Shown: piece by piece, positions 2,355 through 58,347 of the stretch
Numbering within the stretch: position 1 is the stretch's first letter
How the letters are laid out: each line of letters starts with the position of its first letter
NCBI RefSeq assembly: GCF_003334765.1
Contig: NZ_QOWT01000001.1
Source of the DNA: Escherichia coli
GTDB lineage: Bacteria; Pseudomonadota; Gammaproteobacteria; Enterobacterales; Enterobacteriaceae
Strand: one strand, 5' to 3'
DNA length: 64,000 bases
Position numbers and translations under genes: made by a program
The notes under the pieces: generated by a model
What the model was told of the DNA's origin: nothing
Seen by the model: only the letters and a program-made list of their open reading frames with translations
The model's database searches: none

Positions 2355-2920
2355 TATGTATTCCCTTGTGATTATAATCTTCATGAATATATCAATAAGT
2401 GCCGTTATCCAAAAAAAAGCACATTTGGATACTATTCTATGAAGTTCATTTTATTTTAAGGATTACATGTAACAAATGTATTTAAAAGATTTCAAAATGT
2501 TTCTAATCTATTTAATATAATTCAGAATTATGAATTCTAAATATAAATATTCATGAAAATTATAAATGTATATCAATATGTTATGAGTTGGGTGGAAACA
2601 TAGGGGGTGTCAATGATTGTTGCGCTAAACGGCTGGTGTGATCACGCGCACATTAATGAAGGCATAAAAAAAAGCCGGCATCATGCCGGCCCAAAAAATA
2701 TAAACAAGACGATAAAAGGCTAATAACGGAGGCATCATGACACAGAATAATAAAAAGGTATAATTGTAATCAGTGCTAATATATTGATTGAATGAATTAA
2801 TAAAGCCGATCTCAAAGATAAATAAAATCGCTCAAAACGATTTTTCCTGTATTCACTGCCGTTGCGCAAAAATTATCTATTTGTTCAAAAAATGAGTGAG
2901 TCTTGACTGGCTCATCCAAT

Positions 2921-8387: not shown

Positions 8388-10912
<2,525 letters not shown>

Positions 10913-11092: not shown

Positions 11093-11179
11093 AACACATC
11101 AGATTTCCTGGTGTAACGAATTTTTTAAGTGCTTCTTGCTTAAGCAAGTTTCATCCCGACCCCCTCAGGGTCGGGATTT
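11093..11179 (+). ncRNA. dsrA: DsrA small regulatory RNA
   Basis: Sequence aacacatcagatttcctggtgtaacgaattttttaagtgcttcttgcttaagcaagtttcatcccgaccccctcagggtcgggattt matches remembered DsrA, including its terminator hairpin. Confidence 0.85.
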
Positions 11180-23707: not shown

Positions 23708-24050
23708 GTTTTGTAACCTGTTGACTATGCTTGTTTATTATATCCGATCCCACAGCGTGGGGCATGGATGGGGCAAACTCACTCAATTTCTGGTTTAAAA
23801 TGGATACCTGATCCTGAAAGTTTTCTGCCATCCACGATCCGTAAACGCGATAACATGTTTTGTCTTCGCTTTGCTCCCAGGAAGAGTGAACTCATTCGTT
23901 AGCCTGGGGTTCCTTCTGATCATTATTGTTCCTGCCTTTATCTCTTGCCACGCCAGAGCCCCCTGGATACACATACACCAGGATGAAAACGGTGAGTTGT
24001 GTTCAAACTGTAGTACAATTCTCTCCAGTATGAACAGGAAAGAATATGCT

Positions 24051-24383
24051 ATGAACCCTTATATTTATCTTGGTGGCGCAATACTTGCAGAGGTCATTGG
24101 TACAACCTTAATGAAGTTTTCAGAGGGGTTTACACGGTTATGGCCCTCTGTTGGCACAATTATTTGCTATTGTGCATCATTCTGGTTATTAGCTCAGACG
24201 CTGGCTTATATACCTACAGGGATTGCTTATGCTATCTGGTCAGGCGTCGGTATCGTTCTGATTAGTTTGCTTTCCTGGGGATTTTTTGGTCAACGACTGG
24301 ACCTGCCAGCTATCATAGGCATGATGTTGATTTGTGCCGGTGTGTTAGTCATTAACTTGTTGTCACGAAGTGCACCGCATTAA
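24051..24383 (+). CDS. emrE: SMR-family multidrug efflux transporter EmrE
   Basis: ORF track 23871..24383; internal ATG 24051 gives 110 aa MNPYIYLGGAILAEVIGTTLMKFSEGFTRLWPSVG... with four TM segments. Confidence 0.85.
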   Translation: MNPYIYLGGAILAEVIGTTLMKFSEGFTRLWPSVGTIICYCASFWLLAQTLAYIPTGIAYAIWSGVGIVLISLLSWGFFGQRLDLPAIIGMMLICAGVLVINLLSRSAPH

Positions 24384-24551
24384 AAAATAATTATCCTTGA
24401 GATAACAGGAATCTGATTTGTGCATATTATGGCTAATGTTCGGGGCACCTTTATAATTATGATTGCATTTGCGCGATCATTGCGCCTTTATGCATAATGA
24501 GATCAAGGCACATCAAATAAAATAACGATAGGTCACAACAATGAGGTTTTT

Positions 24552-25103
24552 ATGAAAAAACTTATCGTTTCAAGTGTATTGGCATTCATAACATTTTCTG
24601 CGCAGGCCGCAGCATTTCAGGTCACTAGTAATGAAATAAAAACAGGAGAGCAACTTACAACGTCTCATGTATTTTCTGGATTTGGGTGTGAAGGTGGTAA
24701 TACATCGCCCTCATTAACCTGGTCTGGTGCTCCTGAAGGCACCAAAAGCTTTGCCGTAACTGTGTATGATCCAGATGCTCCTACAGGCAGTGGATGGTGG
24801 CACTGGACTGTTGCTAATATTCCAGCAACTGTAACATATTTGCCCGCTGATGCAGGAAGACGTGATGGTACAAAACTTCCGACTGGTGCTGTTCAAGGCC
24901 GAAATGATTTTGGTTATGCAGGATTTGGTGGAGCATGTCCTCCCAAAGGAGATAAACCCCATCATTACCAGTTTAAAGTATGGGCTCTAAAAACTGATAA
25001 AATTCCTGTGGATTCTAATTCCAGCGGAGCGTTAGTTGGTTATATGCTTAATGCCAATAAAATTGCAACCGCTGAGATAACACCAGTTTATGAGATAAAG
25101 TAG
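24552..25103 (+). CDS. ybcL: periplasmic PEBP/RKIP-family protein YbcL
   Basis: 183 aa ORF with signal peptide and PEBP-like motifs (VYDPDAP..., GDKPHHYQFKVWAL). Confidence 0.8.
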   Translation: MKKLIVSSVLAFITFSAQAAAFQVTSNEIKTGEQLTTSHVFSGFGCEGGNTSPSLTWSGAPEGTKSFAVTVYDPDAPTGSGWWHWTVANIPATVTYLPADAGRRDGTKLPTGAVQGRNDFGYAGFGGACPPKGDKPHHYQFKVWALKTDKIPVDSNSSGALVGYMLNANKIATAEITPVYEIK

Positions 25104-25112
25104 GGTAAGAGT

Positions 25113-25910
25113 ATGCTGGCAAAAGATAAGACTAACCTAAAGATTGAAGAAATACGGATGCATAAACATCATGAGATTCACAGGGTTAAGCCTCTTATGC
25201 CAGCTTTATGTCGTATCCGTCAGGGAAAAAAAGTTATCAATTGGGAGACGCATAGTCTAACTGTTGATAATAATCAGATAATATTATTTCCCTGTGGATA
25301 TGAATTTTATATTGCGAATTATCCAGAAGCAGGTCTTTATCTTGCAGAAATGCTTTATTATCCCATTGATCTAATTGAAAAGTTTCAAAAATTTTATGCG
25401 ATAACTGATCAAATTCGTAACACGACAGGTTTCTGCTTACCTCAGAACCCCGAGTTAATATATTGTTGGGAGCAACTAAAAACATCTATTTCCCGAGGCT
25501 TCTCAACGCAAATTCAGGAACACTTAGCAATGGGCGTTCTACTTTCATTAGGAGCACATCATGTTAATTGTTTACTTTTATCAGATAGTAAACAATCATT
25601 AATAAGTCGTTGTTATAACCTAATGCTATCCGAACCTGGAACAAAATGGACAGCAAACAAGGTAGCGAGATATCTCTACATTTCTGTTTCCACATTGCAT
25701 CGCCGTCTGGCAAGCGAGGGAGTAAGTTTTCAAAGTATATTGGACGACGTGAGGTTAAATAATGCGTTGTCTGCTATACAAACGACAGTAAAACCCATCA
25801 GCGAGATTGCCAGGGAAAATGGTTACAAGTGTCCTTCTCGTTTTACTGAAAGGTTCCATAATCGTTTTAAGATAACACCAAGAGAGCTAAGAAAAGCGTC
25901 CAGAGAGTAA
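25113..25910 (+). CDS. ybcM: AraC-family transcriptional regulator YbcM-like
   Basis: 265 aa ORF with C-terminal AraC-type HTH; very AT-rich. Confidence 0.75.
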
Positions 25911-26066
25911 AAGTATTTTATGAAGGAGCAACAGCATCGATTTTTATTTTGGAAAATAAATACGGCATACTCAACCTATTGGAGTCTGAACAATCCGGTG
26001 ACTTCTGCGCTAATCGGGGACGTTTCTAAGCACATATAATTGATACTATCTTCCTCCATCACAATT

Positions 26067-26591
26067 TCAGAAATGCACGTGTGATTTTTTTGCATCCGGC
26101 GTTTGGACTATGTGGAGCTCAAGAGTGGGAAAGTTACAAGAGGTTGAGGGGATAATTAAAGGGATGCTTATGACATTAGATATCCGGTTAGGTGCGGATA
26201 TCGTTGTTATTAAATCTAGTTGATACGTTAAGATGCAGCTACTGACAAAATAGCCAGGACTCCACAAAACGCCTTTGTCGTAATACCTGACTGCAATATC
26301 TGGTCGATCTCGTCGCAGTAACCTACTCGATACGCCTTTGAGGCTGTTTACCAGACTGGATATCGCCAGTTTGGGAGGATAGTTAATTAACAAATGGACG
26401 TGATCTGGTCCGCCATCCATTTCAACCCGTTCAGCTTCAAAATCAGCACATACATTTGAAAAGTAAGTGCGTAGTTTTTCTGTCGCGTCATGGTCAAAAA
26501 TCTGACGTCGGTATTTAGTAACGAAGACTAGGTGAACATGCTTCAGGAAAACACAATGCCTTCCGCGTCGGATATCGGTTTCTTTTTTCAT
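26067..26591 (-). CDS. tnpA: IS200/IS605-family transposase TnpA (HuH Y1), possibly 3'-altered
   Basis: ORF track 26067..26636; MKKETDIRRGRHCVFLKHVHLVFVTKYRR... with HuH motif HVHLL; C-terminal tail is low-complexity and longer than typical TnpA. Confidence 0.7.
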   Translation of the reverse strand: MKKETDIRRGRHCVFLKHVHLVFVTKYRRQIFDHDATEKLRTYFSNVCADFEAERVEMDGGPDHVHLLINYPPKLAISSLVNSLKGVSSRLLRRDRPDIAVRYYDKGVLWSPGYFVSSCILTYQLDLITTISAPNRISNVISIPLIIPSTSCNFPTLELHIVQTPDAKKSHVHF

Positions 26592-26905
26592 AGGCCAAAG
26601 TATGATTTGGCCCATGAAACGACTACAGGCATTCAAATTCCGGTTAAGACCAGGTGGTCAACAGGAGCGTGAAATGAGGCGCTTCGCAGGCGCATGTCGT
26701 TTCGTTTTCAATCGTGCTCTGGCGCTTCAGAATGAGAATCATGAGGCCGGTAATAAATACATCCCTTACGGGAAAATGGCTTCCTGGTTGGTTGAGTGGA
26801 AAAATGCCACTGAAACGCAATGGCTTAAAGATTCGCCCTCACAGCCATTGCAACAGTCACTGAAAGACCCTGAGCGGGCTTACAAAAACTTCTTCCGGCT
26901 TCGTC
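26067..26905. mobile_element. degenerate IS200/IS605-family insertion sequence (tnpA plus 5' fragment of tnpB)
   Basis: Divergent tnpA / tnpB start codons about 25 bp apart; tnpB homology ends after about 95 codons; exact ends not determined. Confidence 0.6.
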
Positions 26906-26943
26906 ACCACGCTCAAACGGTGTGCTACCTATCGCGGCTATAA
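26614..26943 (+). pseudogene. tnpB: TnpB (OrfB) N-terminal fragment
   Basis: ORF track 26602..26943; MKRLQAFKFRLRPGGQQEREMRRFAGACRFVFNRAL... matches TnpB N-termini for about 95 aa, then an unrelated tail and stop. Confidence 0.7.
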
Positions 26944-27322
26944 AAACAGCTTGTCCATCAGCACGATAGATAAAATAAGGCTGCTTTTTGTCGCCTTCTT
27001 TTTTCCACTCAAACCAGCCATCGGCAAAACAGATTGCCCGACCATGTTGCCAGAGCGGTTTAAACATGTGACTGGTTGCGGCAGTTTCTACGCGGGCGTT
27101 AATCAGCGGCGGTTTATCCCACCATCCGGGAGCATATCCCCAGAAAACCGGATCCAGATGAAGGTGTTCATCACGTTCACTGAGCAGAAGGACTTTGGTT
27201 CCCGGCGCGACGTTGTATCTGCCAATAGGTTCGGGATCGTAGGGAATATCGCGTTCAATATCTTCCGCGAGAAGCGCAAGGTAATCTTCACGCGTTTGGG
27301 ATTGGGCAAAGCGTCCACACAT
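26825..27322 (-). pseudogene. yedK: SOS-response associated peptidase YedK, 3'-truncated and fused to IS sequence
   Basis: 165 aa ORF MCGRFAQSQTREDYLALLAEDIERDIPYDPEP... is shorter than the 222 aa I recall for full-length YedK; its 3' part overlaps the tnpB fragment on the opposite strand. Confidence 0.7.
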
Positions 27323-40927: not shown

Positions 40928-41152
40928 TTACTGACGGTAGGCTTGTTTAATTTGCTTAACCGTTTTGGAAAATACTGCAGCCTGGGTTTCGTCTTCGATC
41001 AGCGCAAGCTGTTTTTCCATCTTTAACATCACGCGGCCCGCGTCAGCTTGTCCCATCGCCTGCAGCATCAGCGTCAGCATCGCTTTCAGGCAGGAGACTT
41101 CATTTGCCAGTTCTTGATTATTCTCGGCAGTAGAAAAATCAGGCGTACTCAT
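40928..41152 (-). CDS. yecF: small protein YecF
   Basis: 74 aa [22 protein letters not shown]... Confidence 0.8.
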
Positions 41153-41610
41153 TTATTTTCCTCGTCATGTTGCAATGAAAATTTGCGGTGAAAAATGTTA
41201 AGGCGGCGGAGTATACCATAAGCTTTGCTAAAAATAGCAGTGGTTGTTTTTTGAGCGTGATATCGGCAGTGCTATAAAATACGTTAATATAATGACCAAT
41301 AAATATTTTTATCATGAATGTTTTTTGCCCGTATTGTTCGGGTTAATTAATGTTACATATTCAGCGGGCTGATTTTCATTTTTGCTGAATAAAGGTAATT
41401 TTTGTCACATTTCGTCGCAGGGCTTACTGTGAAACGATCCGGTAAGCCGTTGGTGACGGGCGTGACCATAACTGTGGACAATCGAATTGACAAAAACGAG
41501 AGAAAAATCGAATACCCACCATTTTTAACGTTTCAAAGTTGCAATAAAAACCGCTAATATACGAATGACTAACTATCAGTAGCGTTATCCCTATTTCTGG
41601 AGATATTCCT

Positions 41611-44852: not shown

Positions 44853-44928
<76 letters not shown>

Positions 44929-44982
44929 GTTTAAAAGACATCGGCCTCAAGCGGATGTCTGGCTGAAAGGCCTGAAGAATTT

Positions 44983-45056
44983 GGCGCGTTAACAAAGCGG
45001 TTATGTAGCGGATTGCAAATCCGTCTAGTCCGGTTCGACTCCGGAACGCGCCTCCA
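44983..45056 (+). tRNA. cysT: tRNA-Cys (anticodon GCA)
   Basis: ggcgcgttaacaaagcggttatgtagcggattgcaaatccg...cgcgcctcca. Confidence 0.9.
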
Positions 45057-45068
45057 CTTTCTTCCCGA

Positions 45069-45155
45069 GCCCGGATGGTGGAATCGGTAGACACAAGGGA
45101 TTTAAAATCCCTCGGCGTTCGCGCTGTGCGGGTTCAAGTCCCGCTCCGGGTACCA
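45069..45155 (+). tRNA. leuZ: tRNA-Leu (anticodon TAA, long variable arm)
   Basis: gcccggatggtggaatcggtagacacaagggatttaaaatccc...gggttcaagtcccgctccgggtacca. Confidence 0.9.
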
Positions 45156-48424: not shown

Positions 48425-48748
48425 TTAGAGAAAGACAGGGAAGGCGGAATGATGGCACTGATATGACAAAGTGAATTCCGTATTCAAACATAAGGAACCC
48501 GCAAAAAGGCTACAGTTGCCTACTGGCTGACCAAAGGGGATCGCGTGGGTATAGCCTTCCTGCTGGCATGCGCGATCGGCGATCCCGCGACTGACATAAC
48601 GATCGGTATGGGCATGCTGCAAAAAAGCCTGGTCATAAACCAACCGTACAATACCTGTTGCCGCGTCAACTTCGCTCACATGGGCTTGGCGAGTAACCGT
48701 ACACCCCGCCAGCGTTATTAATGAAAGAGTCAGAATCAGAAGTCTCAT
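48425..48748 (-). CDS. yecR: lipoprotein YecR
   Basis: 107 aa ORF with lipobox LAGC. Confidence 0.85.
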   Translation of the reverse strand: MRLLILTLSLITLAGCTVTRQAHVSEVDAATGIVRLVYDQAFLQHAHTDRYVSRGIADRACQQEGYTHAIPFGQPVGNCSLFAGSLCLNTEFTLSYQCHHSAFPVFL

Positions 48749-49010
48749 GGTCCAGCCAGAAGAGTAAGAGAAAGCACTATTTTACGCGTTACAGCGCTGC
48801 GACAATGGCCGGAAAAGACGCCTGGCAGGCGCTATTTCTTGCCATCTGTAGGTGTCAGAAATAGGGGGGCTGTTTTTTGATTATCATTTTTATAACATTA
48901 AAGGGGGATTTATGTGATTTGTATCACATAAAGATTGATTTTTGTGATGGTTGTCATATTATAAGCGCAAAGACAATAACACCTGTATAACAAATGGTCG
49001 GAGTGCCGCG

Positions 49011-49097
49011 ATGAAACTGCGCAAAATCCTGAAAAGTATGTTCAATAACTATTGCAAGACGTTCAAAGACGTACCGCCAGGCAATATGTTCCGATAA
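49011..49097 (+). CDS. azuC: small membrane protein AzuC (28 aa)
   Basis: ATG 49011 to TAA 49095-49097 encodes MKLRKILKSMFNNYCKTFKDVPPGNMFR; followed by terminator hairpin; too small for the ORF track. Confidence 0.75.
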   Translation: MKLRKILKSMFNNYCKTFKDVPPGNMFR

Positions 49098-49102
49098 CAA
49101 AA

Positions 49103-49126
49103 AACCTGCTCCGGCAGGTTTTTTTG
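49103..49126 (+). terminator. terminator after azuC
   Basis: aacctgctccggcaggttttttt. Confidence 0.7.
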
Positions 49127-49211
49127 TGTCCTGATGACGGTGGATGTGACTATCGCTGAAGATGTGAAGCCGCTACTATAACGGCTTTCAAAATGCTATC
49201 AGGAGTTTACG

Positions 49212-49463
49212 ATGTCCCAGCCGCTGAATGCCGATCAGGAACTGGTTTCTGATGTGGTTGCTTGCCAGTTGGTTATCAAACAAATTCTGGATGTTCTCGA
49301 TGTAATCGCGCCCGTTGAAGTTCGTGAAAAAATGTCCAGTCAGCTGAAGAATATCGACTTTACTAACCATCCCGCCGCCGCAGACCCGGTCACCATGCGG
49401 GCAATCCAAAAAGCCATCGCGCTTATTGAACTCAAGTTTACCCCACAGGGTGAATCCCATTAA
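49212..49463 (+). CDS. yecJ: DUF2766 protein YecJ
   Basis: 83 aa [27 protein letters not shown]... Confidence 0.8.
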
Positions 49464-57217: not shown

Positions 57218-57987
57218 AACCTGTTCCTTATTCTGTGAACTTCAGGTGACATTAAAGCTTTACTCCTAATGGAGAAACGACGCAATCCCAACTCAGTCAA
57301 ACAGGTAAATATTAGTCTGATTATTAGTAAATACAATTAATCAATCACTCCCGGTGATCATATGATTTCAACTGTAATTATAAGAAAATAATGTACTGAT
57401 TCCCCGTATTAAACAAGTGGTTAATATATGCAAAACATTTTATTAACATTAAGTTGATTGTTGCCTTTCTTTGTATCTAATTAGTTTGTTGTGCGGTAAG
57501 TGTCTGTTTAAAAATAGCTTATCTGGTATTGCATGAAAGTGATTATTTATAGCAGATGATTATTTACGGTGAGTTATTTTAACTGTGCGCAACATCCCAT
57601 TTCGATTATTCCTGTTTCATTTTTGCTTGCTAGCGTAGCGAAAAACTTTTTAACAGATTGAAATACACCCAAAACAAAAGTATGGCTTATACATTTATGT
57701 TAAGTAATTGAGTGTTTTGTGTGATCTGCATCACACATTATTGAAAATCGCAGCCCTCCTCCGTAGTATGTGCGTGTAGTGACGAGTACAGTTGCGTCGA
57801 TTTAGGAAAAATCTTAGATAAGTGTAAAGACCCCCTTCTATTTGTAAGGACTTATTAAACCAAAAAGGTGGCTCTGCTTATTGCAGCTTATCGCAACTAT
57901 TCTAATGCTAATTATTTTTTGCCGGGTCTTCCCGGCGACATCACGGGGTGCGGTGAAACCGCATAAAAATAAAGTTGGTTATTCTGG
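57218..57987. promoter_or_regulatory. flhDC upstream regulatory region (AT-rich, no insertion element visible)
   Basis: About 770 bp AT-rich intergenic region between divergent uspC and flhD with no transposase ORF. Confidence 0.6.
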
Positions 57988-58347
57988 GTGGGAATAATGC
58001 ATACCTCCGAGTTGCTGAAACACATTTATGACATCAACTTGTCATATTTACTACTTGCACAGCGTTTGATTGTTCAGGACAAAGCGTCCGCTATGTTTCG
58101 TCTCGGCATAAATGAAGAAATGGCGACAACGTTAGCGGCACTGACTCTTCCGCAAATGGTTAAGCTGGCAGAAACCAATCAACTGGTTTGTCACTTCCGT
58201 TTTGACAGCCACCAGACGATTACTCAGTTGACGCAAGATTCCCGCGTTGACGATCTCCAGCAAATTCATACCGGCATCATGCTCTCAACACGCTTGCTGA
58301 ATGATGTTAATCAGCCTGAAGAAGCGCTGCGCAAGAAAAGGGCCTGA
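57988..58347 (+). CDS. flhD: flagellar master regulator FlhD
   Basis: 119 aa [30 protein letters not shown]... (true start may be a few codons downstream). Confidence 0.9.

Follow-up and report, generated by a model that had tools for sequence, protein, structure and literature searches.

A 28-codon reading frame in the yecR-yecJ gap of Escherichia coli matches azuC/AzuCR, the published small-protein mRNA and riboregulator

Is a 28-codon reading frame in an apparently empty intergenic gap a gene, and does its transcript also serve as a regulatory RNA? The question was raised by a window of 64,000 nucleotides of Escherichia coli DNA (RefSeq assembly GCF_003334765.1, contig NZ_QOWT01000001.1; all positions below are those of the window), in which a preliminary description made from the letters alone had placed a small ATG...TAA frame between yecR and yecJ. 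That description took the frame for azuC, encoding a small membrane protein whose mRNA doubles as a regulatory RNA, and placed a strong terminator behind it. The frame was read at the same coordinates here, inside the 463-bp gap between yecR (48425..48748, minus strand) and yecJ (49212..49463, plus strand), and the ribosome-binding site that had been left to be checked was found ahead of it.

49011..49097, plus strand: azuC CDS, with ATG at 49011-49013 and TAA at 49095-49097; 87 nt, 28 codons plus stop; translation MKLRKILKSMFNNYCKTFKDVPPGNMFR
49000..49003, plus strand: Shine-Dalgarno sequence GGAG, 7-nt spacer to the azuC ATG; conservation 0.97, with GGAG or a related motif in nearly all 85 orthologous loci

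In the list of open reading frames, the azuC frame is nested within a 48-aa, TTG-started ORF (48951..49097), and azuC itself is shorter than the usual ORF-length cut-offs (for example, a 60-aa default). The same list has 50 ORFs of 20 aa or more overlapping the 3 kb around azuC, so the presence of a 28-codon ORF is not, taken alone, above chance. Short ORFs being this common by chance, the case for azuC rests on annotation, on identity with K-12, and on conservation across genera with a coding signature. Also annotated in the window, and also below the usual length threshold, are yecU (58 aa) and a 38-aa hypothetical protein, both between yecF and uvrY (41139-41469, minus strand).

Identity with annotated and K-12 azuC

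A search of complete E. coli genomes found the 463-bp gap in 5420 of 5426, at 95-100% identity, and every match listed carried the annotation "azuC: stress response protein AzuC". In a compared genome that is 100% identical over the gap, the RefSeq azuC CDS (WP_010723106.1) falls exactly on 49011-49097, within the gene order tyrP-yecH-ftnA-yecR-azuC-yecJ-ftnB-araF. The matching RefSeq genome also annotates dgcQ (yedQ, encoding a diguanylate cyclase that regulates cellulose synthesis) as a pseudogene with an internal stop; in the window, dgcQ (8388-10082) appears as two ORFs, 8388-9323 and 9327-10082. Another feature of the window is an insertion between fliE and yedF (about 23900-27322), which carries emrE, ybcL, a gene for an HTH regulator, and an IS200/IS605 tnpA (26067-26591), together with truncated fragments of an HTH gene and of an SOS-response peptidase gene, and which looks like the remnant of a prophage or island.

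K-12 MG1655 has two features at the azuC locus, the azuC CDS b4663 (1987873-1987959) and the azuR ncRNA b4434 (1987843-1988001), and both map onto the ORF. This AzuCR locus, formerly IsrB/IS092, is numbered in the opposite orientation to the window; it has the same peptide and the same neighbours, with yecR upstream and yecJ downstream, and differs only in the surrounding intergenic sequence. Across the gap, the alignment revealed three SNPs (window positions 48795, 48907, and 49170), all outside the transcript and core promoter. The two sequences are identical from at least 48908 to 49169, and the 164-nt AzuCR transcript and core promoter show 100% nucleotide identity.

At the protein level, the NCBIfam equivalog model NF033642 (stress_AzuC; cutoff 30) matched the peptide along all 26 profile positions, with a score of 75.9 bits (E = 1.3e-21). 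A scan of Pfam-A with the peptide padded by 12 in-frame leader codons gave no match, and the precomputed tag PF28150 was attached to all AzuC homologues listed. At the RNA level, the Rfam covariance models gave no gathering-level match over 48969-49132, and the sub-threshold matches (STnc370, rsmX, and RNAI) all fell on the terminator hairpin of AzuCR; no model in Rfam 15 thus appears to recognise this RNA. Gathering-level Rfam matches elsewhere in the window were the sRNAs RseX (2667-2756, minus strand), DsrA (11093-11179, plus strand), and C0465 (63378-63455, minus strand) and a tRNA Gly-Cys-Leu cluster (44853-45152, plus strand), which are ordinary for this region of E. coli.

Judged by sequence, then, the locus is E. 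coli azuC/AzuCR, already known (Hemm 2008/2010; Raina 2022) and annotated in RefSeq, and the naming of the frame as AzuC is borne out by the RefSeq coordinates, the lack of any difference from K-12 across the transcript, and the NF033642 match.

Conservation of the reading frame and its peptide

Searching with the padded 28-aa query returned 124 matching protein clusters, most of them named AzuC and from more than 10 genera (Escherichia/Shigella, Citrobacter, Klebsiella, Raoultella, Kluyvera, Leclercia, Enterobacter, Cronobacter, Franconibacter, Buttiauxella, Pluralibacter, and Pseudescherichia). An alignment of 25 AzuC variants contained 16 invariant residues out of 28 (R4-K8, Y14, C15, T17-P23, M26, and F27). 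A degenerate DNA pattern encoding the invariant YCKTFKDVPP core was then scanned against genome contigs and gave 85 species-representative azuC loci from more than 20 genera of Enterobacteriaceae. No Salmonella or K. pneumoniae names were among these 85 loci; because the pattern demands the exact peptide core, their absence is weak evidence that they lack the gene. An ATG-initiated ORF was present in all 85 loci from other species and was 27-29 codons long in 84 of them; one locus, L080, has an altered C-terminus and a 34-aa product. The lack of conservation in relatives, which the preliminary description had named as the result that would count against it, was therefore not observed, either within E. 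coli or beyond it. Adjacency of azuC to yecR is essentially restricted to Escherichia.

Substitutions within the frame followed codon position. Mean entropy at positions 1, 2, and 3 was 0.32, 0.33, and 0.79 bits in the codons outside the search pattern, a signature of selection on the protein, and in an alignment of 84 sequences (83 other species and the window) conservation across the CDS was 0.97, 0.96, and 0.78 at the respective positions. AzuC is thus under purifying selection across genera. These data bear directly on the original IS092/IsrB annotation, under which the locus would encode a purely non-coding sRNA and the 28-codon ORF would be fortuitous. The RNA was indeed first described as an sRNA candidate (PMC8915982), the same span is annotated as ncRNA in K-12, and short ORFs are abundant by chance; yet a non-coding RNA would have to account for an ATG ORF in every one of the 85 species with a GGAG-type Shine-Dalgarno sequence in nearly all, for third-position entropy that exceeds that of the first two positions by a factor of about 2.4, and for invariance of more than half of the residues across genera while synonymous sites vary. 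Moreover, tagged AzuC has been detected, and ribosome profiling supports its translation (PMC8915982). Together with the published detection of AzuC, the codon-position pattern effectively refutes the non-coding reading, to which we assign almost no probability.

As for the peptide, the helical hydrophobic moment of residues 1-21 was 0.55, compared with 0.23±0.11 for shuffled sequences (0.5% of shuffles reach 0.55), and its net charge is +6. These predicted properties fit the amphipathic, membrane-associated protein that has been reported (PMC8915982). The label "small membrane protein" in the preliminary description is consequently apt as regards membrane association and amphipathic character, but not if read as an integral membrane protein, which AzuC is not. 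AzuC binds GlpD and raises its dehydrogenase activity (PMC8915982).

Promoter, operators and terminator

The published ends of the AzuCR transcript were compared with the signals present in the window.

48969..49132, plus strand: AzuCR (IsrB/IS092) transcript, 164 nt; transcription start site (TSS) equivalent to K-12 1988001; TSS and length from PMC8915982
48935..48940, plus strand: -35 hexamer TTGATT; majority-base share 0.97 in the 84 aligned sequences
48957..48962, plus strand: -10 hexamer TATTAT, separated from the -35 hexamer by a 16-nt spacer; conservation 0.99
48913..48928, plus strand: CRP site 1 (predicted), a perfect TGTGA-N6-TCACA with its centre at -48.5 relative to the TSS
48943..48958, plus strand: CRP site 2 (predicted), TGTGATGGTTGTCATA, one mismatch; centre at -18.5, overlap with both the spacer and the -10 hexamer
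48894..48931, plus strand: reported operators for the repressors FNR, NarP, and PhoP at the isrB/azuCR promoter (K-12 1988039-1988076, PMC12266141)
49099..49125, plus strand: predicted intrinsic terminator, AAAAAACCUGC-UCCG-GCAGGUUUUUUU, that is, A6-CCUGC, a UCCG loop, and GCAGG-U7; conservation 0.96

The published ends fit these signals: the window has both promoter hexamers, two CRP sites, and a terminator, and the mapped TSS lies 7 nt after the -10 hexamer. The RefSeq azuR feature is slightly shorter (159 nt, ending at 49127). Folding of the whole transcript was not unusually stable (z = -1.3).

Repression of azuC by CRP has been reported (PMC8915982), and the position of CRP site 2, overlapping the spacer and the -10 hexamer, fits repression. 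An equivalent of CRP site 1 (about -98 from the ATG) was found in most of the 85 other species, CRP site 2 (about -68 from the ATG) in 86/86 sequences, and a pair of CRP-like sites 30 bp apart in 81/86. The whole window contains six CRP sites with at most one mismatch, compared with 1.8 expected. Two further perfect TGTGA-N6-TCACA palindromes lie at 2930-2945, between rseX and drpB, and at 57720-57735, about 277 nt upstream of flhD (start near 57997); the latter probably belongs to the flhDC promoter.

The FNR, NarP, and PhoP repressor sites were reported at the azuCR promoter by a 2025 study (PMC12266141), and we transferred the K-12 coordinates (x) as window position = 48969 + (1988001 - x). 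Position 48907, the sole SNP relative to K-12 near the promoter, is G in the window and T in K-12 (1988063), and lies inside the reported NarP and PhoP operators (PMC12266141).

Across the 84 aligned sequences, conservation jumps at CRP site 1 and drops to the background of 0.46 just past the T-run of the terminator. Bounded in this way, the conserved unit is the whole azuCR module.

The terminator hairpin starts 1 nt past the azuC stop and folds with -16 kcal/mol (z = -5.5; 0/200 shuffles as stable), in agreement with the strong terminator noted from the letters. A simple consensus terminator scan of the window did not pick up this hairpin, probably because the stem, with its A/U extension, leaves no T-run over. 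The stem ACCUGC/GCAGGU was invariant in 84/86 sequences, without covariation, whereas the loop and the synonymous sites of the ORF vary; the two exceptions were a truncated flank and the altered L080 allele. The stem could have a sequence-specific role besides termination. The hexamer of its 3' arm, GCAGGU, recurs as the 5' seed of the sRNA FnrS.

The succession of a small ORF, a terminator, and a same-strand gene also raises the possibility that azuC controls yecJ as a leader peptide or attenuator, with read-through being modulated by ribosomes that translate as far as the stop codon, 1 nt ahead of the terminator. The arrangement is widespread, with yecJ following azuC in 68/85 species and lying 65-138 nt (median 99) past the azuC stop in 60 of them, and a simple scan revealed no sigma-70 promoter between the terminator and yecJ. 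However, the distance from stop to hairpin ranges from 0 to 17 nt, and about eight Buttiauxella loci, among others, have azuC but lack yecJ within 2.5 kb. Typical leader peptides are not conserved along their full length, as AzuC is, and AzuC also has GlpD as a documented partner (PMC8915982), while the RNA accumulates as a discrete 164-nt species (PMC8915982). In the 60 related loci, the azuC-yecJ spacer (49098-49211) shows little conservation outside TACTAT at 49174-49179 and the Shine-Dalgarno sequence of yecJ; the former resembles a -10 hexamer, and its conservation suggests that yecJ has its own promoter. An attenuator role for azuC is thus very improbable, and a transcription unit of its own remains the preferred reading.

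Base pairing, mechanism and related dual-function RNAs

Besides serving as the azuC mRNA, the same RNA base-pairs with cadA and galE and represses both (PMC8915982). According to Raina et al. 2022 (PMC8915982), pairing with cadA overlaps the AzuC ORF and lies near the cadA RBS; the RNA associates with Hfq and ProQ, translation and pairing compete, and the FnrS pairing site was placed 25-31 nt upstream of the azuC ATG. The corresponding segments were located in the window.

48980..48986, plus strand: FnrS target seed CACCUGU in the leader (leader nt 12-18, 25-31 nt ahead of the ATG), predicted to pair with FnrS nt 1-7 (GCAGGUG)
49049..49082, plus strand: AzuR segment predicted to pair with cadA (about codons 13-24 of azuC) over the cadA RBS and start codon, -15..+19

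The FnrS duplex computed here reproduces the published description, and CACCTG is found near -30 in 71/86 sequences (seed conservation 0.96). Because the leader site CACCUGU resembles the 5' arm of the terminator stem, the leader could in principle also pair with the 3' arm of the terminator.

Duplexes with the two targets were searched locally in 30-nt windows and compared with shuffles. The best AzuCR-cadA duplex (-26.9 kcal/mol) joined AzuCR nt 85-114 (49053-49082) to cadA -15..+14, with other registers starting from 49049, and was equalled by 2/100 dinucleotide shuffles; it agrees with the published pairing inside the ORF and near the RBS (PMC8915982). For galE, this crude thermodynamic scan did not recover the published site, the best local duplex being -28.9 against a shuffle mean of -29.4.

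The regulatory activity may nevertheless be asked to carry less weight than the peptide: the locus could be essentially a small-protein mRNA, with AzuR activity marginal or an effect of overexpression, possibly confined to Escherichia. Most of the published target assays did rely on overexpression (PMC8915982). In other genera, variable third positions were as frequent in the pairing half of the ORF (13/14) as elsewhere (13/13), and for the E. coli cadA initiation region, predicted pairing with the CDSs of those genera stayed at shuffle level (-19.8 and -19.6 kcal/mol). On the other hand, compensatory mutations restored the regulation of both cadA and galE, and cadA-gfp rose in an azuCR deletion strain (PMC8915982). 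The allele in the window is identical to the one tested in that work, its predicted cadA duplex beats 98/100 shuffles, and, within Escherichia, the pairing segment is 98% identical, compared with 85% for a control segment. A purely protein-coding role is therefore unlikely, although less so than attenuation of yecJ, and the dual-function locus proposed in the preliminary description is what Raina et al. 2022 reported (PMC8915982) for the K-12 allele.

The same comparison bears on how the two activities may have arisen. More than 20 genera share the conserved peptide, promoter, FnrS seed, and terminator. In six Escherichia species, predicted cadA pairing ranged from -23 to -27 kcal/mol, and variable sites numbered 10/39 in codons 1-13 and 3/42 in codons 14-27 (Fisher p = 0.033; third positions alone, 0.12). 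The riboregulatory half of AzuCR may possibly be a recent, Escherichia-specific addition to an older CRP-repressed small-protein gene, an idea that we consider rather doubtful and treat as a weak hint, not as a result.

Given the sequence identity with the characterised K-12 locus, the published mechanism is the best explanation for the locus in the window. We consider it almost certain that azuCR (48913-49132) is a self-contained transcription unit that produces a CRP-repressed dual-function mRNA and riboregulator, as published for K-12. A sigma-70 promoter (TTGATT-16-TATTAT) would drive a 164-nt RNA from 48969 to the terminator, ending at about 49127-49132, and the two CRP sites that flank or overlap this promoter would repress it in the absence of glucose. 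Translation from GGAG/ATG (49000/49011) would yield the 28-aa amphipathic, cationic AzuC, which would bind and stimulate GlpD, probably by promoting its association with the membrane. The AzuR segment inside the ORF would pair with the translation-initiation region of cadA and with a site within galE, leading to repression of both, and, as the pairing and coding sequences overlap, translation and base pairing would compete. The anaerobic sRNA FnrS would pair with the leader at 48980-48986 and repress AzuC synthesis. For the present strain, we infer function from sequence identity: GlpD binding, membrane association, target repression, competition, and Hfq/ProQ association would carry over from the literature on the identical K-12 sequence.

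The apparently empty 463-bp gap thus holds a real and functionally important gene that length-thresholded ORF callers miss. Few bacterial dual-function RNAs have been characterised, and among those described AzuCR alone has coding and pairing regions that overlap and compete, as already published. The conservation of both the regulatory module and the peptide in at least 85 species of Enterobacteriaceae extends beyond the "limited number of enteric bacteria" given previously (PMC8915982), and these comparative data offer a handle on how the two activities of AzuCR evolved.

Among known systems, SgrS/SgrT of E. coli resembles AzuCR in that one transcript is both a base-pairing sRNA and the mRNA of a small protein affecting carbon metabolism (PMC8915982). 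SgrS, however, encodes its protein and base-pairs through separate regions, both of which act on one pathway (PtsG) (PMC8915982), whereas those of AzuCR overlap, compete, and act on partly different pathways; the two sequences are unrelated. Spot 42/SpfP and VcdRP/VcdP of V. cholerae are, like AzuCR, dual-function RNAs under CRP control that encode tiny proteins (15 and 29 aa, respectively) and are linked to carbon metabolism, but they too are unrelated to AzuCR in sequence. The three proteins differ in their partners: VcdP relieves the inhibition of citrate synthase by NADH, SpfP binds CRP, and AzuC acts on GlpD.
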